Part shown: positions 40,067 through 64,000 of the stretch, one piece after another
Layout: each line of letters opens with the position of its first letter
Numbering within the stretch: position 1 is the stretch's first letter
Source of the DNA: a virus
Taxonomy: Duplodnaviria; Caudoviricetes
DNA length: 64,000 nt
IMG/VR virus record: IMGVR_UViG_3300005611_001698
Span: 96,001-160,000 of that record
Direction: 5' to 3' (one strand)
Notes under the pieces: model-generated
The model's input: the letters and a program-made list of their open reading frames with translations, nothing else
What the model was told of the DNA's origin: nothing
The model's database searches: none
Program-made: the position numbers and the translations under genes

Positions 40067-40074
40067 TATTTATG
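40067..40074 (-). promoter_or_regulatory. Late promoter CATAAATA (g8)
   Basis: Contains the g7 TAA stop codon. Confidence 0.7.
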
Positions 40075-43000: not shown

Positions 43001-46000
43001 GTTTCCTGATGCAGATGCTAGAGCATCTTCAGGAGTTGCTGCGAGACGAATTGATTTATCATCTATTTTAATAGCATAGACATAATCTGGAAGTTTATCC
43101 GTAGATCCATATCCAGAAATAGTTGTAGTGGCAATTCCAATAGCAGAGGTATTACCAGTTCCAGTTGGATTATATGTCAATCTCTCTCCAGAAGTGAAGA
43201 AGTGATTTGGTAAAACAACCAAATCATTATTTGTATCGACAATCAATGAATCACTGGCATCAAATGATTTAACAAATATTGGATCACCACCATGAAAAAG
43301 ACCAAATGCTCTTCTGACATCTGCTTGAGTATTTGTATAGGTTCCCTCAATACCTTCAATTCTAGTATCCTGGATGTCAATATAATTGATTTGTTCCACA
43401 CCACCTTTAACATGAGCAGCTGAAGTTACAAATGTTTTTGCGATTACATTTGTAGATACTGGTGGTGTGTAAACAACATTATATTTTCCGCCAACGGAGT
43501 TACTGCCAATAGTTCCAATTCCTGTATTTAAATTATCACTATCATCATCGACAGAACCAAATAAAGTTTGATACGTAATGCCATCAGTGTCGGATAAGAA
43601 AATACCTTCAACTAACTCATACCGGTCATTGGTAACATCATGAAGATGAATAATAACATAAGCACCGTCCTCATCAACAGTTGTATTATTTCCAAAATTG
43701 GCGATTGTGGTAATACCAGGAGAACCAGAAGATGGCACATTAGTATATTGTGCTCGTAAATCTCCATTAGTAAGTGAGATTGTTGCAACTCCTACTGTTG
43801 AAACTCCACTTAGGAAAGATGTTTTAAGAATATTAAAAGTAACTGCTGCTCCGACATAATCAGACGAAGGAGTAAAGTTAATATAAAGAACTCCGCCACT
43901 AATGTTTGATCCGAATGTGCCAATATTTGGGGATGAGGTGATGTTTAAATCAGCATCTCCAATGTTTCCATATTCAACACCATAGACTTCATTATTATTA
44001 TGAAGAATATTTAAATCAACAACCTCATGTGTATGATTAGTGTCCATCTGAATCATGAACTTATGTGAGGCATCAAAGGACGCAGTTGGGAAACCAACAA
44101 TATTAACAGCAGTGGAACCTGCTGATATTTGACAACCCCTTGCACTTATCTCAACGATATCTCCAATAGTTGTAACTCCTACGAGAGTTGAAAGACCAAC
44201 AGCAGAGTGAGTATCTCTATCGATATTATAAACTAACCCATGAATGTCATAGTTATTTGTATCATATTTTTGTGGGTAGAATAAAAGTTGACCTTCACTT
44301 CCAAGAGCTTGGAAATCAAAATATCCATTAAGATCCGATGGTCCATTAACGATTGCATATTCTTGAATATACCCATTAATGCCATCATCAAGAAGAAGTT
44401 CAACAATTTGCATTCTTCTTTCGCCAAGGAACTGAGTATCCTCAGTCATCAAGAAGTATTTTCTATATCGAGTTCCAGCAAGAGGGAATGTATCGATTAT
44501 AGAATATCTTGTTGCTCTTGGAGTATTATTAAATTCATCTGAAAAATTATCGATACTTAATACTCTATTTCCAACTGACTCTTCGTAATCTGTCAGTGCA
44601 ATAGTACTTGTTAGGATCTCGTCAGAGAAAAATGATCCAGATATAAATTTGTTTGTTTCAGAAACTAGATCAAAATCATATCTACAATATGTTTCTACCT
44701 CTGAAATGAGATCAAGTAACAACTCTATGTTACTTGAAGAAATGCCAACGGATTTGAATGTTTCATCACGAGATTCAATTTGTAGATCTGAGAATTTTTT
44801 GAATCCAATAGTGTGATCCATAGACGACACAATATCATTCCAAGTGTCATACGCAATTTTTGATTTTAATGAGTATGAAAAATATTGATAATAATCACTG
44901 TCAATCAATCTTTGCTCATTAGTACTTGGTTTGCCAGTGTCTTTTTCCCATCCCTTTATGACAGGTGGAGCAGCTTCAATATCGTACAGAGAATCTACAT
45001 TGATCTTATCAGAAACTTTTGCAATGGTCCCAGAACCAAGACCTTTAATATCATCGCCGGTTAAAATTTCTTTATTGCAGTTGATTTTTAAGATCTTGTT
45101 CGCGTTATCCCAAGTAGAAACCTTTCCATATTTTTGCTCATTTATATTTGTTATAACAACTTCTTCACCAATAGAAAAATCATTTTTCTTGAGAACTGGA
45201 TTGAAAACTGGAAAATCCTCAAATGGAATGACCCTACCAGAAGATCTAACAGTTGAATATGTTCCTGGATTAGAAACATTTGCATCAAGTTTATAAGTAA
45301 CCGATCCAATACCACCAATATTTGCGTCAATGTTAGTAATTTCAAAGAACTTGTAGTTATAGTCTACTGAGTTATATCCAGATCCAGTAGATGCTATTCC
45401 AACACCTTCAACAAAAATTTTGTTCCCAACAGAAAATGGAAATGATCCTACTGTTGAAAATCCAACGTTCAACTGAAGTGTTACTTCTTTTGTAATAGTA
45501 TTAAAACCAACTGTATTAATTCCGACACCATTTGAGTTGTTGATCGTAATAATCGATGGATTAGTGTCAGAGAGATTTTTTGCGTTTTCTTTTATGTTTA
45601 CCTTTGATACAGATCCATTTCTTACTTCTGCTTGAAGAATGACATTTTCAATCTTTTTATTTGTTATGGTGTCAATAACTACAAGATTTGGGGCAATATT
45701 GTATCCATTACCACCAGAACTAATCCCAATACTTTCAAAAGAACTTAATTCCTCAACACGCAAAATTTCTGGTGTATTTGCAATAACTTTTAAAGTTGGA
45801 TCAAAAGAGTAGTTATAACCATTATTTTTTGTTCTAGTTCTACTGATAGAACCCATAGTTCCATTCAATCTAATCAAAGCATTGGAACCAGTGGTTGATG
45901 CAATAGAGGTAATCCCTGGAAGATTTTCGTAATTTACATTACTATTTTTTATATTGATTGAATCAATAGGTCCAGTTGCATTTTCTGATTTATGAGTGTA

Positions 46001-49000
46001 ATAAAACTCTCCATCAGAAGATGTATATGATGTTGATTCTGGTTTTTCTGTAAGATTAAATTTGAATATCGTCGTACCGATACCAGTTGGGTATTCATCC
46101 ACTTGATATGAACTGTTGATAACTCCGATATTGTTAGCAGAGTCTTGCTCAGTATCAATCAATATTTCAGTTTTTGATGTTGGTGCAATATCAACATTAA
46201 TAGGTGTAAACTTATAATACAAGTTGTTCGGAACGAGAGAATTAGTTCTCAAACTAATGACAGCTGGATCTGTAACTCCAATCGTTCCTATCCCACTTAC
46301 TTCAAAATTTCTTGATAGTCCAGTAGTTTTAAACTCATTTCTAAAATATGGGTCAGTATAGAAGTTCAACTTAAAAGCTGAAAATGTTGATCCAGAGGAA
46401 GTAACTGATAGAGATGTGTCCGTAACAGCAAAAGATACTGTATTACCTCTTACAACTTCAATTTTTGGATTTATTTTTGAGATAAAGTGTTCTCCAGATC
46501 CAGTGCCACCAATAGAGATTGGTGTTGGATTTGGTCCAAGCGAATCAACTTTGTTTGCTGCTAGTTTAATATTATTTGAATCAATTTCAATGGCATAATA
46601 CATCCTTTGATCGGTTAAACCAGTTGGAGCAGATCCTCCTGTTGTATAAACAATCTTATCACCACTTATCAAATCATGATTCTGAATATTAATCGTGTCA
46701 GTGGATGTTGTGATTGCAGATGGTTCGAACTTCTTTCTATCAAATACGATTCTTCTGTTATAATCATTAAATTGAACAAACACGGTTTGCGTGTTATTTG
46801 GAAGTGGGACAAGTCTAATATTATCTTGGAAACTTAGTCCATGAGGTTCTTCTGTGGTCAGAGTTGCTTCATATACATTTACATCAGCAGTAATTGGTCT
46901 ATTTACTTTTTTAAAGCTATGTGTTACACCAGAACCAACAGATGTAAATGAAAGTTGGATTGCTGTTGATCCTAAACCAACAAAAGAACCTGTAGATCCT
47001 AACCCAACCTTAGTTGTTGAAATACCAAGAAGATCAGTAGAGTTTTTAATTGCATATACAGTTAACTGATCAGAGAGTACAAAAGTTCCAATACCGTCAG
47101 ATACTTCAATCGAAGTTCCTCCACCATTAGAATAAATCAACTCATCACCAGTATTAAATGAGTGATTAGGAATTAAAATAGTATTGATTGGTATGATCTT
47201 ACTTGTATAAGCAGTTCCTGGTTGATAGTTAGTATTTTCTTGAAGGTGTGGAGGAGCAATATTATTAATCTTATGATATGAAATCGTAGTTCCAACACCA
47301 ACAACAGCGGTGGTTCCAAGTCCAACTACTTCTGATGGATCAAAATATCTCTGGAAAGTTGGTGGATTACCAATATACGTATTAAATCCAACTCTGAAAC
47401 TAAAGGTGCTTTGAAATTCAATGGCAATTGTTCCCGCAGAATAAGCAGTTCCGACAGTTCCGTTGTGATTTCTTTGAACTCTCATTACAGAGTTAAGAGG
47501 ATCAACATTCAAAACTTTCAATTGCTCAAGGTTTTCAGCAGAAACTCCAATACCAATGATTGTATTTTCTCTTACATAAAGAGGATCATATGGACCAGAA
47601 AGCGCGATGTTGGTTGTTAATCCAGTATTTGCTGGTGTATCCAGATACTGCTCTAAAGTCCAAATTCTTTGAGGATTGAAAATATTTTTAGTGCCATTTA
47701 AGTTGGCATATGATTGCGTGGATAATCCAGAAACAACTACTCTGTTCTTGTTTTCAAAATTGTGTGGAGAGGTGCAATATCCAATAGCAAGACCACCACC
47801 AACAAATAATTCTGCATTCTCAGATGTTATCGTCGATGAAGCTATTGAAACTATTTCTTTACCTCTAATTCTACCTACACTTATTCTAGATTGTCTTCCA
47901 TATTTTGGTTGACCATCCAAATATACAATATCACCACTCTTATAACTGGTTCCAGCAGAAACAATATCAAAATCAGTAATCTCACCTCTTCTTGTAGATT
48001 CAATTACAGAAATCTGCCTTTCATCTTTTAAAGAACTATTGATGTATTCATTAAACCCATAAACATCACTTGTTTTTGATGGCTTAGTATTTCTGATCAA
48101 CGTCGAATATTCATAATCAATTTGATTGATCTGTCTATTGTAGTTAAAAGTATCTGGTTTTGATTTAAAAGTATCTCCGATTACATATGGGAACTGTGGC
48201 CTCTTATAGTTTTTAAAACTACCATCACTATCAACTTGTCCAGGATTTACTGTGGTAAAATATGCATAAACACCATCTGGATAATCTGGGGTCTTTGTAA
48301 ATCTTCCATTGTGTTCATCAAGATCTCCATTGTCAGTAAATGAATAGTCCTCGACAAAAAATCCATTTGAAAAACCTGGTGGTCTATCTGGACTTGGATT
48401 TAACTCATATCCAGATTCCATCGCCTTAATAGGACCACCTTCAATATTGTTATAACCATATGGACCATAAATCGGATGTCCATCAAAGGACCATCCAATG
48501 ATTGGTGAGTGATTTTTTGAATCTACTTCAAGACCATTTTGTTTGATCAAATCGAAAGTGTCTACACCATAATTTGGATTTCCACTCTCATTTCTACTAT
48601 AAATGATCTCTCTAAGCGCCCTGGGAGCACTTAGAGACGAATAAGAACCCTTTGAGTATTGATTTGTGCTTCTAGACAAAATACCATCATCTACACTCAA
48701 TTTTCTTCTCTTTTTCTCAAATTCGTTTACATTCCATCTTCTAATCGAAACTCTTGCTTTTGCTCCAATTCCCGTTGGAATAACCTCGACAAAAGTTGTG
48801 CTGGTTGTAAATCCAGATCCACCATTATTTACTTTAACTGAAGTTATAGATCCATTTGTTATAACAGGAGTTAAACTTGCATCTTTACCAGATCCAGATA
48901 TTTTTAAAGTTGGGGATGAGTTGTAACCATATCCACCATTTAGAACAAAGACTTCTGATATCCTACCACCCTGAATAATAGGTTTGAGTTGTGCAGAACT

Positions 49001-52000
49001 TCCATTCTCAAATGTTATTAAAGATTGACGCTCAAAATTTAAAATATCGGAACATCCATATCCAATACCACCCTTTTCCAGATTAATCTTATAAATGCTT
49101 CCTCTAAAGTTCGGTTTAACAGTTGATTGGAAGGCAATATTGTTAGTGGTTCCAATACCAATATTGCCAGAAATATTAACTGCTATTTGTGGATAGTTAA
49201 AGATGTGAGTTCCACCAGTTCCAACACTTTGTAGATCAACAAATATTTTGTTATCAAAGTTATAATAAGATGCTGTTGTGCCAATACCGGCGGATGATAA
49301 CTTAAAGGATCCATCATCAACTTTGGTAACCAAATAGTTCTGGTCAGTTGTTAACCCACTGATTTGAGATCCTTCATATTGATATTTGATGATTTCTCCT
49401 GTGGAAAACCCATGATCAATAAAATTAATCTGATCTTTACTTGTATTAATACCAGAAGAGGACACTCTAATTTGATTATTTGAATATCCAGATCCACCAG
49501 ACTCTACTGATATTGATGAAAGTATGTTTTTCTTTTTAACCGAAGTGAAATATTGATTACCTGATCCAAATGTAGTAATATTAATCGTACCAACTCCTGC
49601 CAAAGCAGATTTTTGATCACGGTGTAAAGTAATCTCAGTAAGAGATTTAGCATTTACATAATAGATAGAGTTATTTGAAAGATATGCATCTCTTATTTGA
49701 GATCCAACTGTACTACCAATACCAATAGGTGTTTGTGAATTTGAGTTATAAACAACTCCATCGCCATCTCTAAGGCGATGATATGTGCTGAATCCAATTA
49801 CATTTGTAGATGTGGAAATATAACTTGCTCCTGCACTCACATCAGTAAAAACTACCGTGTTTTCTGATCTAAGATTTGCTTTTGCCTTTGCACCTTTTCC
49901 ATTTCCACCAGATATAGTGATTATTGGTTCAGAAATAAAATCATATCCACTATCAATAACCTCAATAGAATCCAGAGAACCACGCACAGAAGCAGTTGCT
50001 GTTGCACCAGTTCCAACAGAATCTGAGATTATAATATTCGGTGGATTAATAATATCGTAATTTGATCCACCAGATAAAACTTTTACACCAGTTAAGTTGC
50101 CATAATAACAGTAATCATTTGATTTATAACTTAAAATATCAACACCATTAATAAAAACTCCAACATTTCCAGGATTCGTTTTTACTTTATTTTCTGGAGT
50201 TTCAATGAAAACTGGAATTTTTCTAACTCCATATGAAGAATCTAGTTGATATTCATAAGAGTTGATCGGATATATTACTTGATTACTTGCAATACCACTA
50301 ACATTAACAAAGGCATTATTAAAAATATCTGCTTTGGATTCGGATAATTTAAAATTACTTGGATCAACTCTTTTCACAAAATATCTACCCTCAATCAAAT
50401 CTCCAAGATTTCTGACTGTGGTAATGGCAACCGGTTCTCCATATCCAGTTAATAACTCTACAAATTTGTCTGGCTGATAATAAACCTCATCACCAGTGTA
50501 AAGACCATGATCTGGATAGTTAATGGTATCTCCACTTACAATGTAAGGTGAGGTTGCACTATTTCCATTATCCGTAAGGACAATATTTTCACTTTTAACA
50601 TTAATTGGATTCTGATATGACGGTAAAGAGTGTGACGCAAAATAAACAGAGTCGTTCTCATCATAAAAAGATTTAATGACATTAGATGGCAAATAGTTTA
50701 CACCATCATTTTGAGAACTTACCTTTCTGATAAGTCTTCGTACATCTCCACCAAGTTGCGGATCAAATCCAGATAAACCAGAAACATCAAAAATAAAATC
50801 AGAGATAATATTATTGACCACACCACTTGTTTCTAATCCTCTTGTTGTTATAACTTGAATAGAATCTCCAATTTGAAATCCATGAGGTTCAAAACTTTCA
50901 ATCTGATAAAGGGAGATAATATTTGGGTTTTGTCCAAGTTGATTTTGATTTAAAATACGTGATGTTTTGATTTTAAATCTACATGTCTCATTATGAATCA
51001 AAGAGTCCATAACTTTGTTGGACTTTGCATAACCGAGAGATTGGTTTTTGATTACATCACCAGGCGTAAAATATGGCGTATCAATATCCGTTGCCTTTAT
51101 TTTATATCTACCAAGAGAACCTTTGATTTTAAATTCATATTCTGTATCATCATCGAGAACTACATACGAACTCGTATTTTCAAATACCTCTTGCTGATCA
51201 ATGATAATATCTGTAACACCGTCAATATCTAAAAACTGAGTTGTATTTTTAGAGGAATATGTTACAATACCAGACTCTCCAGATTGATATCTTACTAAAA
51301 GTTCCCCAGTCTTAGGAAACCCAATTGTTGACTCAACATCAAAAAATGTAGATCCAGAACCAATGTTTCCAACTATTTTGGTTTGTTTGTCTATCTTGAA
51401 ATCCCCGTAAACAGATCCAAATGTATTTGTATCTTTATTTTCGACAAAATCAATATCAATCAGATAAAAAGTTTTATCTTCTCTAAAAATTCTTTCAATA
51501 TCTACAATCGAACCATATGATGTAATATTACCATTTCCATCTCTTTGATAAAGGGTTCTTGCAATAAGACCAGACAAATATTGTTGTGATATATCAACTT
51601 GACCTGGAAGAGGTTCTGCACATAGTCTAATAACTCTTCTATAAGAAGCATCAGATGGAATGAACAGATTATCTTGTGGTTTTAAAACTTCAACCTCATC
51701 ATTATATAAAGCTCTAAAAAGAATCTCAAAAGAATCTGGTGTTCCCTTTGATTTGTAAAAATCTACTGCTTGTTTTATAAAATTAGATGGTCTTAAACCT
51801 TTATATAAATCTACTTCTTCAAGACCAGGTAAAAACTGTGCTTTGATTTTTTTGAAAAACTCTTTTAAAAATAAAGATGAAAGATTAAGTACCTGATCAT
51901 CTTCAAAATGCTCACTTGCATTTGTATCTTCAAAGATTAGTTCATCGGGACCATTGTTGCTATGATAACTTGTGATGCCACTAAAACCCCTGATACATCC

Positions 52001-52339
52001 AGTAAAAGATGTATTTGTTTTTCCAGTATATGAAATAATCTCATTATTGATCTTTAAAAGTCCATATTGATCTGGCCAACCAGAAGTATCGCCAACATTA
52101 ATTGTCGTATCACTAAAACTGACGTTAGAAGTTGCAGTTGTAGACCCAATGATTGAGGTGTAAGTTCCTACCTTAACATATTGATCAATGTTTTCCAGAA
52201 TATTTACTGGACCACCTTGATACTCTTGTGACTTATAATATGTTTTAAGAAAATCCCCTGCTCCCTGAAGTTCAGAACCAAGAAAAATAGGAAGTTGATT
52301 TTCAACAACCGACTGGATTTTAACTCTTTTTTCTAACAT
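40070..52339 (-). CDS. g7: Baseplate wedge initiator (gp7-like), 4089 aa
   Basis: FYKSKGT, DSDYYQYFSYSLKS and HTIGFKKF core motifs, many GxGY and HxFxTG(D/E) repeats, position between g6 and g8. Confidence 0.9.
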   Translation of the reverse strand: MLEKRVKIQSVVENQLPIFLGSELQGAGDFLKTYYKSQEYQGGPVNILENIDQYVKVGTYTSIIGSTTATSNVSFSDTTINVGDTSGWPDQYGLLKINNEIISYTGKTNTSFTGCIRGFSGITSYHSNNGPDELIFEDTNASEHFEDDQVLNLSSLFLKEFFKKIKAQFLPGLEEVDLYKGLRPSNFIKQAVDFYKSKGTPDSFEILFRALYNDEVEVLKPQDNLFIPSDASYRRVIRLCAEPLPGQVDISQQYLSGLIARTLYQRDGNGNITSYGSIVDIERIFREDKTFYLIDIDFVENKDTNTFGSVYGDFKIDKQTKIVGNIGSGSTFFDVESTIGFPKTGELLVRYQSGESGIVTYSSKNTTQFLDIDGVTDIIIDQQEVFENTSSYVVLDDDTEYEFKIKGSLGRYKIKATDIDTPYFTPGDVIKNQSLGYAKSNKVMDSLIHNETCRFKIKTSRILNQNQLGQNPNIISLYQIESFEPHGFQIGDSIQVITTRGLETSGVVNNIISDFIFDVSGLSGFDPQLGGDVRRLIRKVSSQNDGVNYLPSNVIKSFYDENDSVYFASHSLPSYQNPINVKSENIVLTDNGNSATSPYIVSGDTINYPDHGLYTGDEVYYQPDKFVELLTGYGEPVAITTVRNLGDLIEGRYFVKRVDPSNFKLSESKADIFNNAFVNVSGIASNQVIYPINSYEYQLDSSYGVRKIPVFIETPENKVKTNPGNVGVFINGVDILSYKSNDYCYYGNLTGVKVLSGGSNYDIINPPNIIISDSVGTGATATASVRGSLDSIEVIDSGYDFISEPIITISGGNGKGAKAKANLRSENTVVFTDVSAGASYISTSTNVIGFSTYHRLRDGDGVVYNSNSQTPIGIGSTVGSQIRDAYLSNNSIYYVNAKSLTEITLHRDQKSALAGVGTINITTFGSGNQYFTSVKKKNILSSISVESGGSGYSNNQIRVSSSGINTSKDQINFIDHGFSTGEIIKYQYEGSQISGLTTDQNYLVTKVDDGSFKLSSAGIGTTASYYNFDNKIFVDLQSVGTGGTHIFNYPQIAVNISGNIGIGTTNNIAFQSTVKPNFRGSIYKINLEKGGIGYGCSDILNFERQSLITFENGSSAQLKPIIQGGRISEVFVLNGGYGYNSSPTLKISGSGKDASLTPVITNGSITSVKVNNGGSGFTTSTTFVEVIPTGIGAKARVSIRRWNVNEFEKKRRKLSVDDGILSRSTNQYSKGSYSSLSAPRALREIIYSRNESGNPNYGVDTFDLIKQNGLEVDSKNHSPIIGWSFDGHPIYGPYGYNNIEGGPIKAMESGYELNPSPDRPPGFSNGFFVEDYSFTDNGDLDEHNGRFTKTPDYPDGVYAYFTTVNPGQVDSDGSFKNYKRPQFPYVIGDTFKSKPDTFNYNRQINQIDYEYSTLIRNTKPSKTSDVYGFNEYINSSLKDERQISVIESTRRGEITDFDIVSAGTSYKSGDIVYLDGQPKYGRQSRISVGRIRGKEIVSIASSTITSENAELFVGGGLAIGYCTSPHNFENKNRVVVSGLSTQSYANLNGTKNIFNPQRIWTLEQYLDTPANTGLTTNIALSGPYDPLYVRENTIIGIGVSAENLEQLKVLNVDPLNSVMRVQRNHNGTVGTAYSAGTIAIEFQSTFSFRVGFNTYIGNPPTFQRYFDPSEVVGLGTTAVVGVGTTISYHKINNIAPPHLQENTNYQPGTAYTSKIIPINTILIPNHSFNTGDELIYSNGGGTSIEVSDGIGTFVLSDQLTVYAIKNSTDLLGISTTKVGLGSTGSFVGLGSTAIQLSFTSVGSGVTHSFKKVNRPITADVNVYEATLTTEEPHGLSFQDNIRLVPLPNNTQTVFVQFNDYNRRIVFDRKKFEPSAITTSTDTINIQNHDLISGDKIVYTTGGSAPTGLTDQRMYYAIEIDSNNIKLAANKVDSLGPNPTPISIGGTGSGEHFISKINPKIEVVRGNTVSFAVTDTSLSVTSSGSTFSAFKLNFYTDPYFRNEFKTTGLSRNFEVSGIGTIGVTDPAVISLRTNSLVPNNLYYKFTPINVDIAPTSKTEILIDTEQDSANNIGVINSSYQVDEYPTGIGTTIFKFNLTEKPESTSYTSSDGEFYYTHKSENATGPIDSINIKNSNVNYENLPGITSIASTTGSNALIRLNGTMGSISRTRTKNNGYNYSFDPTLKVIANTPEILRVEELSSFESIGISSGGNGYNIAPNLVVIDTITNKKIENVILQAEVRNGSVSKVNIKENAKNLSDTNPSIITINNSNGVGINTVGFNTITKEVTLQLNVGFSTVGSFPFSVGNKIFVEGVGIASTGSGYNSVDYNYKFFEITNIDANIGGIGSVTYKLDANVSNPGTYSTVRSSGRVIPFEDFPVFNPVLKKNDFSIGEEVVITNINEQKYGKVSTWDNANKILKINCNKEILTGDDIKGLGSGTIAKVSDKINVDSLYDIEAAPPVIKGWEKDTGKPSTNEQRLIDSDYYQYFSYSLKSKIAYDTWNDIVSSMDHTIGFKKFSDLQIESRDETFKSVGISSSNIELLLDLISEVETYCRYDFDLVSETNKFISGSFFSDEILTSTIALTDYEESVGNRVLSIDNFSDEFNNTPRATRYSIIDTFPLAGTRYRKYFLMTEDTQFLGERRMQIVELLLDDGINGYIQEYAIVNGPSDLNGYFDFQALGSEGQLLFYPQKYDTNNYDIHGLVYNIDRDTHSAVGLSTLVGVTTIGDIVEISARGCQISAGSTAVNIVGFPTASFDASHKFMIQMDTNHTHEVVDLNILHNNNEVYGVEYGNIGDADLNITSSPNIGTFGSNISGGVLYINFTPSSDYVGAAVTFNILKTSFLSGVSTVGVATISLTNGDLRAQYTNVPSSGSPGITTIANFGNNTTVDEDGAYVIIHLHDVTNDRYELVEGIFLSDTDGITYQTLFGSVDDDSDNLNTGIGTIGSNSVGGKYNVVYTPPVSTNVIAKTFVTSAAHVKGGVEQINYIDIQDTRIEGIEGTYTNTQADVRRAFGLFHGGDPIFVKSFDASDSLIVDTNNDLVVLPNHFFTSGERLTYNPTGTGNTSAIGIATTTISGYGSTDKLPDYVYAIKIDDKSIRLAATPEDALASASGNYLDLTTVGIGTSHTFTAQDQNTKCIIALDNNIQDPVIPGNIEHTLIEDMSFGGQFIRLSGVSSFFGGDLLKVEDEFMRVDQVGFGSTNVLLVKRAWMGTGLSTHPSGTLVEKYEGSYNIVDNTINFYTAPNGIQPPEDATDPDEIDWTGIQTSSTFQGRTFLRNGVVGSSTHTYATNYLFDSISPQLTGVGKTFAIKQDEANVSGFSTNHAFILINDIAQIPSQGSRINDFAFTENAGITSIVFSGFGASVSNDVNTGSVPVGGVIVSVGSTQGFGYQPLVAAGGTANISGFGTVTSISIGNSGSGYRSGIATLNGIVQELTYNVGLRTTDLDTVDVVSIGTATISNGNVVGVSITNPGTGYTFSNPPIVVFDNPTPYTRIPLIYHPDSPGTQIGTNAYVDIQVSLGSSVTNFEIINSGYGYKDGEILTIPSGGITGIPTDSTVGAGFSEFRINIDRVDSDKFTGWRFGDLDVLDKLDPFFDGETKVFTLKKEEVSVSIRAARGSLIDIEQTILVFFNNVLQEPGIAYQFSGGSNITFAEAPKVGDTCSILFYKGTGDIDVVSKDIIETIKVGDTVRITSGDDLNSFAFEQESRFVTGINTSDRFNTNLYSGVGLTTDITIQRPMIWCKQQEDLFFDGQSVTKDRILYEANIFPETHIIKPVGLGSTEIWVDNVLPFFDSYNESLEDAKQIIDIFEQGSKIAAAATAVISGFGTVLSISVTNSGLGYTATPLVSIANSVGFGSDTRATASASITGTAVTSITVTNAGAGYTFTNPPVVLISPPIFDKEEMTGVEYSGDFGVITGIATTSVGLASTGIVFDLLIPNDSPLRSSAYVGPSGIQTITNIAAGYPFVVFDSNIGNGVTSLDLGGSVLGIGTTFLDNVYEAVSVSIATTEAVGFGATYVAKVTVSVQDYNSLTGLGYSDFFGRYSWGKLRNFTRAGVAKSFTPELNDGFTGISTGPVVLRKTPLKSVGYLT

Positions 52340-57124: not shown

Positions 57125-57313
57125 TTAGTGATACGCTGCTTCCCAGAGGTTCTCTACACTTTCTGACATATCTTCCACAGTGACTGTCAAGTTCTCCCCA
57201 CCTTGAATATCAAAGACCTTGTGAAAATCAATCTGATGAACATCAAAATCCTCAAAGACTTCAAAGTCTAATGTAACACGAATCTGCTGTTTTTGTGCGT
57301 GACTGGTGTGCAT
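57125..57313 (-). CDS. Small acidic hypothetical protein
   Basis: 62-aa ORF with its own promoter (57339-57368). Confidence 0.7.
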   Translation of the reverse strand: MHTSHAQKQQIRVTLDFEVFEDFDVHQIDFHKVFDIQGGENLTVTVEDMSESVENLWEAAYH

Positions 57314-57338
57314 CAGTTCAGGAGTGATTGACCTTAGT

Positions 57339-57368
57339 ATTATATAACAACCCTCTAAGGATTGTCAA
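57339..57368 (-). promoter_or_regulatory. sigma70-type promoter
   Basis: TTGACA-18 nt-TATAAT. Confidence 0.75.
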
Positions 57369-57407
57369 GGTTTTGTGTGGGTCTGATGATGAGAATCGGG
57401 GTGGGGG

Positions 57408-57436
57408 TTGACAGAATCGTCGTGTTATGTTATGCT
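57408..57436 (+). promoter_or_regulatory. sigma70-type promoter firing into the DnaA-box repeat array
   Basis: TTGACA-17 nt-TATGCT with extended TG; no plus-strand gene downstream. Confidence 0.65.
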
Positions 57437-57474
57437 CGCTTAGATCACAAGACCTGGACACATTTCCAGAAGAA

Positions 57475-57560
57475 TAACAACAGTTTTCCACAAGTATTAG
57501 AGGGACATTAACAACAGTTTTCCACAAGTATTAGAGGGACATTAACAACAGTTTTCCACA
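57475..57560 (+). repeat. 34-bp tandem repeat (2.5 copies), each with a TTTTCCACA box
   Basis: Unit TAACAACAGTTTTCCACAAGTATTAGAGGGACAT at 57475 and 57509, partial copy at 57543. Confidence 0.95.
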
Positions 57561-57690
57561 GGATTAAACACTGCAAAGTAACTGCTTAGATACCACAAAT
57601 ACACTGCAAAGTAACTCTTTCTGTGGAATTGTGGAAAACTCTTTAACAAACTCAAATACATTTTTTAATACGTTTTTAATACATTTTTAA
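57484..57690. other. Candidate replication origin or DnaA-binding locus
   Basis: TTTTCCACA at 57484, 57518 and 57552, inverted copy at 57630-57638; ACACTGCAAAGTAACT at 57568 and 57601; AATAC(A/G)TTTTT three times at 57655-57690. Confidence 0.55.
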
Positions 57691-57691
57691 C

Positions 57692-57901
57692 TCAAAACAT
57701 GCTATTTATTGATGTTTTTGGGGTGTAATCTACGTCATTCCAATGTCTCACAGCATTAGCAACAATTGCTACATTAGTGATAAGATAGGTAGCAAAGATA
57801 ACCGTTCTGATGATTGCTACTGTATCTGCTTCCTTATCATCTTTCCCTTGTTTTTCACCCAGAGCTTTACACCATAATCTCCATACAGTTTTAATCATCA
57901 T
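57692..57901 (-). CDS. Small membrane protein
   Basis: WRLWCKALGEK, a hydrophobic segment and VRHW. Confidence 0.75.
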   Translation of the reverse strand: MMIKTVWRLWCKALGEKQGKDDKEADTVAIIRTVIFATYLITNVAIVANAVRHWNDVDYTPKTSINSMF

Positions 57902-58124
57902 GTTTCGATTCTCTTGATTTAATGTAAGTTAATTCATGCCAACAATGACGTGGGCAAACAACAAGAACATGATCTTTTTGATGTCTGATTTGATTCACAT
58001 AAACAGGACGTTTTTTGGGGTAAGTGTTAATCTCGATTGAGAGTGTATCTTGGTCAATGTAATAAACCCAACCTTGTATGTGTTTCCATGAGACAAAATC
58101 ATTGAGTTTAGGATGATACGTCAT
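57891..58124 (-). CDS. Early hypothetical protein
   Basis: 77-aa ORF overlapping both neighbours. Confidence 0.7.
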   Translation of the reverse strand: MTYHPKLNDFVSWKHIQGWVYYIDQDTLSIEINTYPKKRPVYVNQIRHQKDHVLVVCPRHCWHELTYIKSRESKHDD

Positions 58125-58407
58125 AGAGCAAACTTTCTAGGGGATTGAGTTTAATCTGCATAGAAGTGTAACATCTAGTATCAGAAATGTCAACCTTTTT
58201 TCCTACTGTTTTATGATTGATTGGGGCATGATATGTTTGAGATTTTGTATTAAAAAACCCCCAGATTGATTTGGGAGTTTTTGTTGTGTAGGAAAAGTTT
58301 TGATGATTTACGATCCAAATAGCAATGAGATTACGTTTGAATTGTGTAACCTCATAAGAATAACCTTTGGGAGGTTTGTGTGTAAAACTTGTGGGTAGTT
58401 CAATCAT
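58108..58407 (-). CDS. Early hypothetical protein
   Basis: 99-aa ORF (PPKGYSYE, SIWGF) with TGATG coupling. Confidence 0.75.
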   Translation of the reverse strand: MIELPTSFTHKPPKGYSYEVTQFKRNLIAIWIVNHQNFSYTTKTPKSIWGFFNTKSQTYHAPINHKTVGKKVDISDTRCYTSMQIKLNPLESLLYDVSS

Positions 58408-58550
58408 CAGAACTCAGTGAACTCCTCCAAATAATACTCAGCAGAGACATTGAGTTTCTGACATTCTGTCATGATAGTATCCACTTGTTCACCATTAAGT
58501 TCACAAACTTCATACAGAAAGTGAAGATCTTGTTCGATAGTTGTAATCAT
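58407..58550 (-). CDS. Acidic microprotein (47 aa)
   Basis: Manual translation MITTIEQDLHFLYEVCELNGEQVDTIMTECQKLNVSAEYYLEEFTEF; overlaps neighbours at both ends. Confidence 0.7.
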   Translation of the reverse strand: MITTIEQDLHFLYEVCELNGEQVDTIMTECQKLNVSAEYYLEEFTEF

Positions 58551-58675
58551 TTACGCAGTGGAGAATTAAAGTAACGAGAGAAAGCAGTGAACAAAATAAT
58601 GGCAGTGGAGATGATACCAATCATCCCCAAAATTGTAACACCATCACCAGTGAAGTTGTAAGTTTCAGGCATCAT
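58547..58675 (-). CDS. Single-pass membrane microprotein (42 aa)
   Basis: Manual translation MMPETYNFTGDGVTILGMIGIISTAIILFTAFSRYFNSPLRK; ATGA coupling. Confidence 0.7.
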   Translation of the reverse strand: MMPETYNFTGDGVTILGMIGIISTAIILFTAFSRYFNSPLRK

Positions 58676-58837
58676 TCAAACAGTGTAATTATCCTGGGCA
58701 AATTCATCACATTGGACATTCATTTTCTCCTCATGAATAAACTCTTCAATCGTTTCATCATTTAACCAATGGTCATGGATTTCAGCATAATCTTTCTCCA
58801 TTGAAAGTGCAATTGTGCAGGGATCAGTGTAACTCAT
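58676..58837 (-). CDS. Acidic microprotein
   Basis: Start revised to MSYTDPC (58837), since the longer annotated N-terminus overlaps a hairpin. Confidence 0.55.
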   Translation of the reverse strand: MSYTDPCTIALSMEKDYAEIHDHWLNDETIEEFIHEEKMNVQCDEFAQDNYTV

Positions 58838-58937
58838 TTGATGTGTGATTTGTTGATGATTGTAATCCATTCGGTCGGAGGTGAGAGTTTGTTGAATACT
58901 TTCACCCACCGACCTTGAAACTTAACTAACGTATATT

Positions 58938-59282
58938 TCATGCAAACAAATAACCAGAAACGAAATCATCAGTTTGATAAACATTTTGACCGTTCACACA
59001 TCCAACAAACTTACGAACATACCAAAGAAAATCTTTCTGAAATACACCTTCACCAGCAATACAAAACTCCTGGCAAAGTGCATTAAGACGAGATTTTGTA
59101 GTGACAGACTGATAACCACCATCAAAGATTGTCATGCTAGTGTCATCAATAGTAGCAATCAGATGACCATGAAGATACACATTAGAAACATCTTCACCAA
59201 TATACTTAACCTCAGTGTTTGCACATTTCCAGTTTTGATTGTTCTTGACGGCAGCAATCATTTGAGATTCGATCTTACGCAT
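58938..59282 (-). CDS. Conserved early hypothetical protein
   Basis: MRKIESQM...LHGHLIA...TTKSRLNAL pattern. Confidence 0.8.
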   Translation of the reverse strand: MRKIESQMIAAVKNNQNWKCANTEVKYIGEDVSNVYLHGHLIATIDDTSMTIFDGGYQSVTTKSRLNALCQEFCIAGEGVFQKDFLWYVRKFVGCVNGQNVYQTDDFVSGYLFA

Positions 59283-59315
59283 GAGAGACGATTTGAGAGA
59301 GGTTAGTGTAAAGAA

Positions 59316-59552
59316 TCAGGCGAAGTTGTATTCAGTTTGGTTACGATTGTCTGCTGCTTCCCAATAAGTGTAGAAGTCATTCCATGCTGCTTCGTTATCA
59401 ACAAAGGAGTCGATTCCGAGTTGCTCGCAAACAAAATCGTATGCCATATCTACATCGGCATTTGTGTCATCGACAAAGGACAACATTTGTCCCATAACAT
59501 AATCCCAGGACTGTTGCATTTCAGGAGAGAGAGTGAAGATCGGTTGTGCCAT
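59316..59552 (-). CDS. Acidic early protein (78 aa)
   Basis: Start revised to MAQPIF (59552), directly behind promoter cassette 1. Confidence 0.7.
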   Translation of the reverse strand: MAQPIFTLSPEMQQSWDYVMGQMLSFVDDTNADVDMAYDFVCEQLGIDSFVDNEAAWNDFYTYWEAADNRNQTEYNFA

Positions 59553-59563
59553 GTCGGTTGTGT

Positions 59564-59635
59564 TCCTTTGACTCTTATAGAATACACGATTCTGGGGGTC
59601 GTGCCCATTTTGTGTGACACTTATCCAACTGGCAC
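59564..59635 (-). promoter_or_regulatory. Early promoter cassette 1
   Basis: Palindrome GTGACACTT-N4-AACTGGCAC (59614-59635), 29-nt gap, -10 TATTCT, leader GAGTCAAAGGA. Confidence 0.8.
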
Positions 59636-59643
59636 ACCTCAGA

Positions 59644-60033
59644 TTAAAGATAAAGGAAAGAACCGTAAGCATCACAAATATGAGGATTATCTGCCAACTG
59701 AGTGATCAGATAGCGGACACCTTTTGCAGGTGCTTTGTAACTAGCAGGTTTGTAACATTCACCAGTATTCTTATCAACGAACATCCAGCAAGAACGTCCA
59801 CGAATCTTATCACCAGCATCAGAAAGATAAGACCAAACTTTGATATACTTTCGACCTTCCTCAATTTCCAGTTGAGTATAAACAGAATGACCAGATTCAA
59901 TAGAATTAACTTTCCACTCATTGTTCAGCACTTCGATAAGTGCTTCAGTCAGAAATTGTGGTTTGGTTTGTGTGATCGTCATGTCAAGGTTGTCAGTCAT
60001 TTTAGTGTGAAGATAAGATTTGATAAGTGACAT
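59644..60033 (-). CDS. Early hypothetical protein (paralog A)
   Basis: GRKYIKV...FVDKNTGECYKPASYKAPAKGVRY; 3' end duplicated at 63894-64000. Confidence 0.8.
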   Translation of the reverse strand: MSLIKSYLHTKMTDNLDMTITQTKPQFLTEALIEVLNNEWKVNSIESGHSVYTQLEIEEGRKYIKVWSYLSDAGDKIRGRSCWMFVDKNTGECYKPASYKAPAKGVRYLITQLADNPHICDAYGSFLYL

Positions 60034-60037
60034 AAAC

Positions 60038-60265
60038 TCAGCAAGATGCGGGCATGTATTGTTGTGGTTCAGTCAGGAAATCTGTCACCTGATAACCATG
60101 AATGTCCAGACGAGAATTGCACGTTTCAATCATCTCTTTTTTGTTGAACAATCGCATGGACTGAGTTTCACCTTTGAACTTCAAAGTGTAGACAAACTTA
60201 TCAGTCAGGATAGCATGAGGGCGAAACTCGACAACCATAGAATGACGTTTGGAAGTAAGTTGCAT
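60038..60265 (-). CDS. Early hypothetical protein
   Basis: First gene behind cassette 2. Confidence 0.75.
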   Translation of the reverse strand: MQLTSKRHSMVVEFRPHAILTDKFVYTLKFKGETQSMRLFNKKEMIETCNSRLDIHGYQVTDFLTEPQQYMPASC

Positions 60266-60275
60266 GAGGTGAAAT

Positions 60276-60347
60276 CCCTTTGACTCTTTAATAATACATG
60301 GGATCGGACCCTATGGGGAAAATAGTGGGCACCTTGCCAACTGTCAC
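60276..60347 (-). promoter_or_regulatory. Early promoter cassette 2
   Basis: TGGGCACCT-N4-AACTGTCAC (60326-60347), 29-nt gap, -10 TATTAT, leader GAGTCAAAGGG. Confidence 0.8.
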
Positions 60348-60351
60348 ACCA

Positions 60352-60693
60352 TCAATAAGTATTCTGAAACTGACGAAATAAAATGATTTCCTGTTGCTCA
60401 GCAGCAGATTCTCTCTCCTCAGTATCAGTCAACCCACAAAGATCCTGAGAGACATGCACTAACTCATGAAGTAAAGTAACAATGAAATCCCGTTTTGTAA
60501 GGTCATTATGTAACTCAATCAGAAACTCATTGTCCTCATTGTGTGAGCAGAATCCAACTGCATAATCTTCACTCAAATCAGTGCAATTTACCTCAATCTC
60601 AATATCAGGTAACTGATGCTCTTTTGCATACCACTCAACAACTTCCGCAGCAAGATTGCGACGTTGATTGTCACCAGAAAAGAAAAGTTTCAT
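60352..60693 (-). CDS. Small HEXXH zinc-metallopeptidase-like protein
   Basis: TLLHELVHVSQ followed by a distal E; ATG 60693 in a TGATG overlap. Confidence 0.7.
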   Translation of the reverse strand: MKLFFSGDNQRRNLAAEVVEWYAKEHQLPDIEIEVNCTDLSEDYAVGFCSHNEDNEFLIELHNDLTKRDFIVTLLHELVHVSQDLCGLTDTEERESAAEQQEIILFRQFQNTY

Positions 60694-60863
60694 CAATCGT
60701 TGATAGGTTCGGGATACTTGAAAGATTTTAGAATCTCTTGATAATCACGTTGCTCAACTTCATCAAACTCATATTCTTGTTGTTCGAGACAATAAGAAAT
60801 CAGATCAATTTGGTCGGGAGAAAGTGTAACTTTGAACATTGATTTTGCAAGTGTTGACTTCAT
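60693..60863 (-). CDS. Acidic microprotein (56 aa)
   Basis: Manual translation MKSTLAKSMFKVTLSPDQIDLISYCLEQQEYEFDEVEQRDYQEILKSFKYPEPIND; coupled at both ends. Confidence 0.65.
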   Translation of the reverse strand: MKSTLAKSMFKVTLSPDQIDLISYCLEQQEYEFDEVEQRDYQEILKSFKYPEPIND

Positions 60864-61063
60864 TATTTTACCATATTACGTTGCTTTTTGCATATCGTAT
60901 CAATGTAAGTTCTTGCTGTGATGCAACTACGAAACTTACGAAATTCGTTCTTTGTTCCTAACTCTGTTAGTGCAATGTAACCCTTATTCTTGAAAGGCAT
61001 TGCGACATGATTACCACATTTACATACAATCGGAGGATGAGGATCAAAGATCTGAGTGTTCAT
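60863..61063 (-). CDS. Early hypothetical protein
   Basis: 66-aa ORF with TAATG coupling. Confidence 0.65.
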   Translation of the reverse strand: MNTQIFDPHPPIVCKCGNHVAMPFKNKGYIALTELGTKNEFRKFRSCITARTYIDTICKKQRNMVK

Positions 61064-61347
61064 TAGTCCTCCGTTAATTCTTGTTGAAGCAGCATAAATT
61101 GTTCTTCCGTAAATTCATCTACGCACTCCTGAATCACCTGATAGATGTAATCATTGTTTCCTACATCATTAAAGATTCTTTCAGCAAGTTCAGGATGTTT
61201 GTCGCAGACATAATCATGCTCTCCATCATTATCAACGATAGCACAATCCTCAGCAGTGTAAATCCATGCTGCACAAGGTGCATTTTCACCCTGCAATTCG
61301 ATCATCTTGGTGATACGATCTTTGACTTGTTGAAGAGTGTAGTTCAT
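61063..61347 (-). CDS. Early acidic hypothetical protein
   Basis: 94-aa ORF (QGENAPCAAWIYT). Confidence 0.75.
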   Translation of the reverse strand: MNYTLQQVKDRITKMIELQGENAPCAAWIYTAEDCAIVDNDGEHDYVCDKHPELAERIFNDVGNNDYIYQVIQECVDEFTEEQFMLLQQELTED

Positions 61348-61350
61348 GAT

Positions 61351-61512
61351 TCAGACAGAGAGAGTAACAGAAACTTCTTTAATGTTCAGTCCACAAAGTT
61401 GATTGTAGACCCGATTATTGATGAGATCGCAGGCACGTTTTGCCTTGCTTTTTTCATGCCAGATGGTAACACATCCGTCATTAGTTTCAACCCGAACGCG
61501 ATAGTTTTTCAT
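61351..61512 (-). CDS. Microprotein (53 aa)
   Basis: Manual translation MKNYRVRVETNDGCVTIWHEKSKAKRACDLINNRVYNQLCGLNIKEVSVTLSV; TGATG coupling. Confidence 0.7.
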   Translation of the reverse strand: MKNYRVRVETNDGCVTIWHEKSKAKRACDLINNRVYNQLCGLNIKEVSVTLSV

Positions 61513-61676
61513 CAGTTTTCCTCCCGAACAGTGATAATGTGAAAGTGAGGATTGTTACGGCGACAAGTAGCAATCGCATCCTCTCTTGTAGGAGCAATGT
61601 AACCTAAAAGATCATAGTTTTGATAACCATTAGGTCGGATAAATTCTCCGTAAATTAGAAACTTAGGTTCGTTCAT
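61512..61676 (-). CDS. Microprotein (54 aa)
   Basis: Manual translation MNEPKFLIYGEFIRPNGYQNYDLLGYIAPTREDAIATCRRNNPHFHIITVREEN; first gene behind cassette 3. Confidence 0.7.
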   Translation of the reverse strand: MNEPKFLIYGEFIRPNGYQNYDLLGYIAPTREDAIATCRRNNPHFHIITVREEN

Positions 61677-61695
61677 CAGTCGAGTCGGTTGCTGT

Positions 61696-61767
61696 TCCTT
61701 TGACTCTCTTAATATACACGGAATCGGGGTCCGTGGGGAGAATAGTGGACACTTCTAAAACTGGACC
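61696..61767 (-). promoter_or_regulatory. Early promoter cassette 3
   Basis: TGGACACTT-N4-AACTGGACC (61746-61767), 29-nt gap, -10 TATATT, leader GAGTCAAAGGA. Confidence 0.8.
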
Positions 61768-61970
61768 AATTTTGTTGTGCTGATGCAGAGCAAAAATGCT
61801 AACATGATAACAACATCCCATGACTTAGTTCGGATGAAGAATGGGATTGAAATCATGTCAGCAATTAAGTGCATCATCACTCCAAATGTTACATTTACAT
61901 GCAACACAACAAAATAGGCAGAAACAACTAGAAATGATCCGATGATTCTGCCTAAAATGTCAATCTTCAT
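61755..61970 (-). CDS. Small multi-pass membrane protein
   Basis: 71 aa with three hydrophobic segments. Confidence 0.75.
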   Translation of the reverse strand: MKIDILGRIIGSFLVVSAYFVVLHVNVTFGVMMHLIADMISIPFFIRTKSWDVVIMLAFLLCISTTKLVQF

Positions 61971-62395
61971 ACGGCAAGAGCTCCATCAGGAATCGGCACT
62001 TCCATGACATTATTAACAGTGTATGGATTAGGGCGAAGATCATGACACACCCATTCACCATTTACAAAGTGATAGGCATATTCACCACCACAATTATTAT
62101 CCGAATAAATCAGAAACTCATTGAGGTCTTTATGAAGAACAGGCGGGCAATCTTCACCTCGTTGAGAATAGTATTGGGGACCATAAACACCCTTCACGCC
62201 AGTATCATCCCAGCGTTCATCTGTCCAGCAACAGGACATATCACCACCATCAATCAGTTCCTCAACAAGTGATTTAGAGTTGTAATGTGTGGTGAGAATA
62301 CGACCCAACCACTCAGGATAACCATCCCAATGATGATAAACAGACAGAATAGATCCGTCTTGAAGTTGAAGACCAATGCGTGAACGAGTTGCCAT
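61967..62395 (-). CDS. Conserved phage early hypothetical protein
   Basis: MATRSRIG...YHHWDGYP...GGDMS...EYAY pattern, widespread in phages. Confidence 0.85.
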   Translation of the reverse strand: MATRSRIGLQLQDGSILSVYHHWDGYPEWLGRILTTHYNSKSLVEELIDGGDMSCCWTDERWDDTGVKGVYGPQYYSQRGEDCPPVLHKDLNEFLIYSDNNCGGEYAYHFVNGEWVCHDLRPNPYTVNNVMEVPIPDGALAV

Positions 62396-62397
62396 AA

Positions 62398-62538
62398 TCA
62401 GAAAAGGGAGAGTTGTTGAAAGTTAATATGGTCACAGCAAGAGTCATCGTCTTGCAAATCTATCATGTCGGTATCAACATGCTTCAAGAGTTTGTCAAAG
62501 AGATCATTAACAAACTCTCGGTCTTCGTTAGTAATCAT
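62398..62538 (-). CDS. Acidic microprotein (46 aa) with C-terminal QLSLF beta-clamp-binding motif
   Basis: Manual translation MITNEDREFVNDLFDKLLKHVDTDMIDLQDDDSCCDHINFQQLSLF; ATGA-coupled to the upstream ORF and ends 2 nt before the next ATG. Confidence 0.7.
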   Translation of the reverse strand: MITNEDREFVNDLFDKLLKHVDTDMIDLQDDDSCCDHINFQQLSLF

Positions 62539-62702: not shown

Positions 62703-62713
62703 TTGAGGTCGAT

Positions 62714-62786
62714 TCCTTTGACTCTCTTAATATACACGGGATTGGACCCCGTGGGGAGAATGGTGGACACTTTGACCAACTGGCAC
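62714..62786 (-). promoter_or_regulatory. Early promoter cassette 4
   Basis: TGGACACTT-N5-AACTGGCAC (62764-62786), 29-nt gap, -10 TATATT, leader GAGTCAAAGGA. Confidence 0.8.
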
Positions 62787-63703: not shown

Positions 63704-63894
63704 TTTTTGTTCAGAAAGTGTGCTTCAATAATGTCTAAAATCTCACCACATTCATCTGCGGCATCTTCATCAATCAGAAGAGCATAATCCTCAACAGCAT
63801 CAGCAATCAGTTCTAATTGTCGGTCAGTAAATGTCATCTTACGGATTGAAAGATTGTTGAGTTGGTTGATAGTGTCAGTGAAAAGATCAGTCAT
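63700..63894 (-). CDS. Acidic early hypothetical protein
   Basis: 64-aa ORF with TGATG coupling. Confidence 0.7.
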   Translation of the reverse strand: MTDLFTDTINQLNNLSIRKMTFTDRQLELIADAVEDYALLIDEDAADECGEILDIIEAHFLNKK

Positions 63895-64000
63895 CAGAGA
63901 TACAGGAAAGAACCGTAAGCATCACAAATGTGAGGATTATCTGCCAACTGAGTGATCAGATAGCGGACACCTTTTGCAGGTGCTTTGTATGATGCAGGTT
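63894..64000 (-). CDS. 3' end of paralog B of the 59644-60033 gene (partial)
   Basis: Encodes ...PASYKAPAKGVRYLITQLADNPHICDAYGSFLYL*, identical in protein sequence to paralog A; 99/107 nt identical. Confidence 0.85.
   Translation of the reverse strand, partial: PASYKAPAKGVRYLITQLADNPHICDAYGSFLYL

Follow-up and report, generated by a model that had tools for sequence, protein, structure and literature searches.

In a 64,000-nucleotide (nt) stretch of viral DNA—hereafter the window, which comprises bases 96001–160000 of the 194,408-bp IMG/VR virus record IMGVR_UViG_3300005611_001698 and whose genes, nearly all of them on the minus strand, match those of T4-like Synechococcus myoviruses—we found that the spacer at 57339–57690 is, as judged from its sequence, a copy of a single-copy, syntenic, non-coding module of the T4-like cyanophages (Kyanoviridae) that surrounds exact copies of the cyanobacterial DnaA box. 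The interval under study extends from the first base of a plus-strand promoter in that spacer to the start codon of the gene for a 46-amino-acid (aa) microprotein (57408–62538) and covers the start of a region of small open reading frames (ORFs) with repeated promoter cassettes, the large structural genes being next in the order of transcription. A sequence-only reading of this interval had proposed that the boxes and the microprotein, which ends in a match to the bacterial clamp-binding motif, might constitute a two-part takeover of the host's replication. That joint takeover is not supported: the two elements occur independently of each other. That the early region might instead harbor two separate devices, namely an origin or switch module binding the host DnaA plus a microprotein docking on a clamp, and not one system, we consider an evenly balanced proposition.

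The intergenic space between a 69-aa gene (57692–57901) and a 62-aa gene (57125–57313) extends from 57314 to 57691 and holds four exact copies of the 9-mer TTTTCCACA, which sequence is the species-type cyanobacterial DnaA box present in the oriC of S. elongatus, Anabaena, and Cyanothece and is bound in vitro by domain IV of DnaA, also as a closely spaced tandem pair, such a pair occurring in the Cyanothece oriC (PMC4674748). The elements of the module in the window were the following:

57484, 57518, and 57552, plus strand: exact 9-mers TTTTCCACA, located by sequence search
57630–57638, minus strand: fourth exact 9-mer, inverted, adjoined by a box with two mismatches, the pair spanning 57621–57638
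57475–57576, plus strand: 34-bp tandem array with the first three boxes (perfect repeat at 57475–57560, 2.5 copies, 100% matches)
57339–57368, minus strand: predicted early sigma-70 promoter in the gene direction (TTGACA-18-TATAAT, 12/12), driving the 62-aa gene at 57125–57313
57408–57436, plus strand: predicted antisense, non-coding sigma-70 promoter (TTGACA-17-TATGCT plus a TG extension), firing into the box array
57439–57457, plus strand: leader of 19 nt, conserved, where the antisense transcript is predicted to start; exact copies in 8 IMG/VR stretches
57568–57616, plus strand: exact direct repeat of 16 nt, in two copies 33 bp apart, located between the direct boxes and the inverted one
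57655–57690, no strand assigned: AT-rich tract with an 11-mer repeated 3.2 times, a candidate unwinding element

The antisense promoter points against all the neighboring genes, and the ORF list contained no credible plus-strand ORF downstream from it; likewise, the tRNA and Rfam searches of the spacer found no tRNA and no Rfam family. The layout encountered in the sequence—a predicted promoter reading into ORF-free DNA, followed by the 34-bp array and the AT-rich tract—is that of a T4-type origin. The exact 9-mer occurs 8 times in the whole 194,408-bp genome versus approximately 2.4 occurrences expected from the base composition, with 4 of the 8 lying within these 155 bp; the relaxed consensus TTWTNCACA, for its part, was not enriched over the whole window (11 found against 10.7 expected), which result indicates that the signal resides in the cluster and not in the count. 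Since the local count is inflated by the tandem duplication, this within-genome statistic is suggestive, not decisive, and the main support for the box locus is its recurrence in other phages.

That recurrence was evident at several levels. Tandem box pairs with a 3-bp gap were present in more than 117 IMG/VR stretches, as a minimum, compared to the about 3 that we estimated to occur by chance, and among the matches listed 58 of 121 such loci were accompanied by genes of this phage type. When the isolates were searched with a 48-nt form of the element, 136 records matched; Synechococcus, Prochlorococcus, or other cyanophages accounted for 97 of these, the match falling there always in unannotated spacers. 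When 22 cyanomyovirus genomes from 22 genera were inspected, a cluster—defined as at least two exact 9-mers within 300 bp—was found in 13, in one place each, at 41–59 kb in records starting at gp59 or gp32, within the region of small ORFs located upstream of the genes for the baseplate wedge; and the exact 9-mers over those 22 isolates summed to 95, against 40 for a reversed-pattern control. Read in the direction of the genes, the module of the isolates consists of the stop codon of the upstream ORF, one or two 9-mers, 12–22 variable bases, an inverted 9-mer, about 60 AT-rich bases, an antisense promoter facing the boxes, and finally the early promoter of the next genes. The locus in the window, which contains the AT-rich repeats, shares with those modules the back-to-back promoters and differs from them in the number and spacing of the boxes. 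The back-to-back arrangement is found also in 12 isolate phages and in two IMG/VR loci, L244 and L404, which loci are direct homologues of the one in the window. Throughout the genera the 9-mer remains unchanged while loops, spacers, and flanks vary, and a T-rich motif related to the AT-rich 11-mer flanks the boxes in the relatives. In the 8 IMG/VR stretches that carry it, the 19-nt leader follows immediately upon a promoter, whether or not boxes lie downstream. This anatomy, its conservation, and its distribution are direct observations.

The blastn comparison of the whole spacer with the isolates gave a 33-nt match, at the leader, in phage S-SCSM2R as the sole result; the conservation of the module is one of architecture and not of sequence that can be aligned. 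Around 60 tandem pairs, a promoter scan with strict criteria revealed no uniform promoter position; the conserved antisense promoter has an atypical −10 element and was recognized only by eye and through alignment. A scan of viral sequences for two boxes separated by 15–45 nt gave about the number that we would estimate for chance and was uninformative. A search of the literature returned no paper coupling the cyanobacterial DnaA-box motif with cyanophages, and the module is, as far as the literature searched shows, undescribed.

Two published annotations coincide with copies of the module. In S-PM2 (RefSeq NC_006820, 19177–19333) the cluster, at 19231–19264, lies under the annotated tRNA-Asn and tRNA-Leu, and several coding sequences overlap tRNAs; the annotation of this interval looks shifted or unreliable. 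In Syn9 (NC_008296, 52477–52635) the annotation places a 52-aa ORF, gp86, around the two boxes; this ORF may have been called spuriously over the non-coding module.

With regard to what recognizes the 9-mer, copies with a single mismatch were 3.7-fold enriched beside the clusters, and in 38 of the 44 such copies near clusters the mismatch fell at position 1, 2, 3, or 5, as opposed to 33% in the background, which pattern corresponds to the degeneracy of TTWTNCACA, with the T at position 4 and the CACA being kept. A DnaA domain IV was not found in this phage or in four relatives, and one gene encoding that domain is present in each of the five picocyanobacterial genomes that served for the host comparison. 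The invariance of the 9-mer, the variability of its flanks, and the many loci with direct repeats alone argue for recognition by a sequence-specific protein rather than for an RNA hairpin.

A number of observations nevertheless weigh against a module that works through the host DnaA. Nine of the 22 isolates have no cluster, and three of those nine have no exact box whatsoever; in addition, the loci L399, L400, and L403 keep the antisense promoter and the 19-nt leader without any exact box. Since these box-free modules are homologous, the boxes must be dispensable for the module, of which the promoter part is the more constant component and the boxes a frequent but dispensable insert. On the host side, the exact 9-mer was no commoner than the reversed control in the five picocyanobacterial genomes, and upstream of dnaN in those genomes we found at most one exact 9-mer and no clustering, small conserved groups occurring elsewhere; given these control-level counts, the use of this box by the hosts is itself puzzling. 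So weak a signal in the host genomes makes "oriC mimic" too strong a term for these hosts, and the phage array of perfect boxes is denser than any site that we saw in the five genomes. The cumulative GC skew, moreover, was monotonic in this genome and in that of Syn9, with no origin signal, although that measure is uninformative, cannot decide the matter, and does not tell against an origin, because nearly all the genes are on one strand. Finally, the common inverted pair of boxes could act as a hairpin.

This last point belongs to the possibility that the 9-mer is not a DnaA site in these phages at all, but rather the target of another host or phage protein, or a hairpin operating at the RNA level, its identity with the DnaA box being coincidental. 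In most isolates the inverted pair is 12–22 nt apart and might provide a 9-bp stem, and the lack of enrichment in the host genomes would be consistent with such a coincidence. There is, in contrast, no compensatory variation in a 9-mer that stays invariant across genera while the loops change; many loci, including those of the window and of S-CAM1, have only or mainly direct repeats, which are unable to pair; no Rfam match was obtained that would point to a hairpin; and the degeneracy pattern fits the specificity of DnaA. We consequently regard a recognition other than by DnaA as improbable.

Some further loci deserve separate description. In L403 (1–400, minus strand) three degenerate copies of the 19-nt antisense leader come after it in the place of DnaA boxes, which repeats suggest that the leader sequence may itself be a recognition element. 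Three of the picocyanobacterial genomes (L378, L383, L384; G044, G046, G036) have in common an intergenic locus in which two exact 9-mers converge, with exactly 44 bp between them and a conserved CTGTG after them; the ORFs on either side had no Pfam match, except for a nearby gene with an EVE domain. Exact boxes also bracket, in four picocyanobacterial genomes (L379 and L381, from G044 and G019; G036 and G046 by coordinates), the roughly 290 bp of AT-rich intergenic DNA that separate the 3′ end of recG from a gene for a D-Ala-D-Ala dipeptidase; this spacer is a possible site of the real oriC, or of regulation by DnaA, in these hosts.

From this anatomy we infer what the module might bind and do. 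The antisense promoter would transcribe through two to four perfect boxes and the AT-rich tract, up to the encounter with the sense transcription coming from the upstream early genes; the host DnaA, as the only available DnaA-type DNA-binding domain, would occupy the boxes; and the bound DnaA together with the promoter-driven transcript would open or mark the AT-rich tract. The outcome would be either an origin resembling the T4 oriE or oriF, from which the phage would begin its first replication round, or else a switch or roadblock gated by DnaA; in both cases the start of the phage would be tied to the state of the host initiator. Between these alternatives we favor a DnaA-assisted origin or start switch because the module has candidates for all the parts of a T4 origin and because the phage encodes gp59, gp32, gp43, and gp45. 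A "single theta origin" has been reported for Syn9, as cited in PMC2984593.

The serious rival to that preference is a roadblock or insulator, or else a DnaA sink, in which case the boxes would bind the host DnaA and yet not serve as an origin. As a roadblock, DnaA bound directly past the upstream early gene's stop codon would halt the converging sense and antisense RNA polymerases, which effect would be useful in hosts lacking Rho; as a sink, the many copies of the phage DNA would titrate DnaA. The DnaA-box complexes of E. coli can indeed block a transcribing polymerase, and in at least 10 isolates the first box is located directly after the stop of the upstream ORF and faces the antisense promoter from 70–100 bp away; the GC skew, with no origin signal, may be counted on the same side. 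The 2–6 boxes per genome, however, make a small sink, and a syntenic module in single copy that has AT-rich repeats beside it and a non-coding promoter of its own suits the anatomy of an origin equally well. We therefore hold a roadblock or sink to be rather unlikely, though with more to recommend it than a recognition by something other than DnaA, and we retain the DnaA-assisted origin or start switch as the favored interpretation of the module.

The second element is a small protein encoded at the other end of the interval:

62398–62538, minus strand: 46-aa acidic microprotein of phrog_4032, with an N-terminal helix, a disordered acidic linker, and the C-terminal QLSLF
62713–62772, minus strand: one copy of the repeated 60-nt promoter cassette, immediately upstream of a compact unit of three genes (55, 46, and 142 aa) to which the microprotein belongs

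The C-terminus of the microprotein, QQLSLF followed by the stop, matches the clamp-binding pentapeptide QL[SD]LF or QLxLF. The assignment to phrog_4032 was obtained at E 7e-26, and 82 phage records and a minimum of 256 IMG/VR stretches contained relatives; no relative was found in Pfam, among the PDB sequences, or in the ESM Atlas. An alignment of the family, comprising 78 clusters with a mean net charge of −9, exhibits a helix at the N-terminus, an acidic core, DLQDDD, that is invariant, and a tail of the form FxQLxLF, with a QLx[LMIF][FL] at 5 residues or fewer from the end in 63 of the 78 relatives and an exact QLx[LMI]F terminus in 35. The AlphaFold2 model contains a helix at residues 4–19, then a low-confidence acidic linker and a short terminal turn, which layout is, in the model, that of a short linear motif on a flexible tail. 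The gene starts in overlap with the stop of the 55-aa ORF (ATGA), the 142-aa gene begins two bases after it, and no neighboring gene is conserved, the counts being 5 and 3 of 66 loci.

These features are consistent with a free-standing cassette gene whose product would be a helix bearing a flexible acidic tail that ends in a clamp-binding motif of the bacterial type. Through that tail the microprotein would dock on a sliding clamp, for preference the host DnaN over the phage gp45, in competition with the normal clients of the clamp; and such a docking, on DnaN rather than on gp45, is to judge by the motif the most likely role. Two findings tell against that proposal: the strict QL[SD]LF terminus is present in only 12 of the 78 relatives, with some relatives lacking the motif altogether, and the phage has a clamp of its own that binds C-terminal hydrophobic tails, its gp43 ending in LEAFFS, which tail differs from QLSLF and is of the same hydrophobic type. 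The microprotein could therefore bind gp45 instead of the host DnaN, in the manner of the tails of the T4 gp33, gp55, and gp43, or could have an unrelated partner. Clamps of the T4 type bind short hydrophobic C-terminal tails, the phage has genes for both gp45 and a clamp loader, the family contains a conserved internal segment, FV[DN][FD]LF, that resembles the tail of the T4 polymerase, and a part of the family has no terminal F. Conversely, QLSLF is the exact bacterial consensus and is unlike the LEAFFS of the phage polymerase, and a gp33-like gene is already present in these phages, according to the annotation of Syn9. A target other than DnaN thus appears to us unlikely, albeit the most substantial of the alternatives considered here, and the host clamp remains the preferred partner. 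The prediction of complexes of the microprotein with the host DnaN and the phage gp45 gave a score below the mark and was run without controls, so that it constitutes no evidence either way.

Two candidates were discarded along with these comparisons. The notion that the microprotein was the missing gp33 was dropped in view of the gp33-like gene annotated in Syn9, and a 239-aa protein with a similar hydrophobic tail turned out to be a baseplate hub. The canonical clamp motif, sought as a local reference in the UmuC-like proteins of the host, was not found there.

The remaining features of the small-ORF region are repeats. The 60-nt cassette exists in four copies on the minus strand (59563–59622, 60275–60334, 61695–61754, and 62713–62772), 65–100% alike and each upstream of successive small-gene units; this sequence contains a GC-rich dyad, a TATATT-like −10, and a ribosome-binding site and is probably a repeated early promoter. 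A 108-nt direct repeat, 93% identical between 59643–59750 and 63893–64000, covers the 3′ end of a 129-aa gene (59644–60033), and its second copy runs off the end of the window; the two belong to a paralogous gene pair in the early region. In the structural region, two ORFs of 2682 and 4089 aa occupy 30440–38488 and 40070–52339 on the minus strand.

The question whether the boxes and the microprotein belong together could be approached through their distributions. The separate observations on which the sequence-only reading was built held: the four exact 9-mers at 57484–57638 match the host initiator sites and recur across cyanomyovirus genera; the 46-aa ORF at 62398–62538 ends in the clamp-binding consensus; and the two are close together, 4.8 kb apart in the early region of the window. 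With respect to the takeover of both initiation and elongation that had been proposed, each half is a plausible interface with a host protein, to the extent that the motifs permit that statement, while a functional link between the halves is not supported in view of the independence of the distributions, an outcome that the sequence-only reading had itself named as a refutation. Of the 22 isolates, 3 had both elements, 4 had only the protein, 10 had only the boxes, and 5 had neither; in other words, the cluster accompanied the protein in 3 of 7 isolates and was found in 10 of the 15 that lack the protein. From these counts we calculated by hand a hypergeometric probability of 0.94 for three or more joint occurrences, and there is accordingly no positive association; S-RSM4, S-WAM2, and S-H9-1 even possess the protein and no exact box at all. 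The coupling was equally poor locus by locus, with a cluster in only 4 of the 20 microprotein loci that extend at least 8 kb downstream, and the protein in only 3 of 54 independent box-pair loci; exact 9-mer clusters lay 2–7.5 kb downstream in six of 80 IMG/VR loci encoding the microprotein.

What the sequence-only reading envisaged was that the box locus and the microprotein were the two arms of one program that blocked or borrowed DnaA and DnaN together. In its favor are the location of both in the early region, at 4.8 kb from each other here and at 2.7–3.9 kb in S-CAM1, S-CAM3, S-RIM32, S-RIM44, and Syn1, and the precedent of an E. coli phage protein with clamp-binding motifs that perturbs the control of DnaA via the clamp–Hda pathway (PMC12867686). 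In opposition to that idea stand the lack of a positive association over 22 genera, the weak coupling of the individual loci, and the non-conserved neighbors of the microprotein; and the proximity of 2.7–4.8 kb where both occur is explained by the fact that both sit in the same hyperplastic early region. We also know of no Hda homologue described in cyanobacteria, the host genomes not having been searched for one. A single program is, in our judgment, very improbable.

Cyanomyoviruses are among the most abundant viruses of the ocean and their replication depends on the physiology of the host, but to our knowledge neither the origin of that replication nor the trigger of its first round has yet been mapped. 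A single syntenic module around perfect host-initiator sites constitutes a concrete and testable place to look for the origin, and is worth experimental mapping. The module furthermore suggests a way for a virulent phage to sense the replication state of the host even though it possesses a replisome itself; if this were true, the phage's replication would be coupled to the light- and cell-cycle-dependent state of the host initiator. The microprotein, for its part, represents a small candidate for a clamp-binding peptide of natural origin, encoded by a phage that infects a phototroph, and the negative result concerning the link means that the two elements deserve to be studied separately and not as one system. 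The most general proposition—that T4-like cyanophages, despite a full replisome, are connected to two replication proteins of the host through separate devices that are inherited independently, namely a DnaA-box module acting as an unmapped replication origin or as a DnaA-sensing start switch and, in some lineages, a 46-aa peptide occupying the sliding clamp of the host—we put forward as a long shot.

Among known systems, the closest in sequence are the oriC clusters of S. elongatus, Anabaena, and Cyanothece, which have the same 9-mer in closely spaced tandem copies and an AT-rich tract nearby (PMC4674748). The phage module differs from those in belonging to a lytic T4-like phage with its own replisome and helicase loader and in having only 2–6 boxes, situated between back-to-back early promoters; the marine host genomes sampled, unlike the phages, contain no comparable cluster upstream of dnaN. 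In T4, oriF and oriG consist of a promoter and an AT-rich unwinding element, with priming by an R-loop, whereas oriE consists of an early promoter and 12-nt direct repeats, or iterons, at regular intervals (PMC3016281). The module resembles these origins in its predicted promoter reading into non-coding DNA, its evenly spaced direct repeats, its AT-rich tract, and its T4-like genome, and as in T4 the functions of gp59, gp41, gp32, and an RNase H type of enzyme are available to the phage. The repeats of the module, by contrast, are host-initiator sites and not phage iterons, there is no sequence homology, and T4 has several origins while the module is one locus per genome.

DnaA boxes are likewise found in the replicons of temperate phages and plasmid-prophages, such as the pR/ori region of lambda and the oriR of P1, and in the datA sink of E. 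coli, where they serve in origin function, promoter control, or titration. The likeness to the lambda and P1 replicons lies in a phage DNA bearing DnaA sites of the host; but the elements of lambda, P1, and datA rely on the host replisome, whereas the present phage is virulent, T4-like, and equipped with a complete replisome. For the microprotein, polypeptides of staphylococcal phages that bind the beta clamp are known. The C protein of phage Mu binds the E. coli clamp by means of clamp-binding motifs and, when overexpressed, disturbs the control of DnaA (PMC12867686). The microprotein is comparable to Mu C in being phage-encoded and in carrying a bacterial clamp-binding pentapeptide, with the binding being predicted in our case; but Mu C is a DNA-binding transcription activator of the Mor/C family, while the microprotein is a 46-aa acidic peptide with neither a DNA-binding domain nor a known family.

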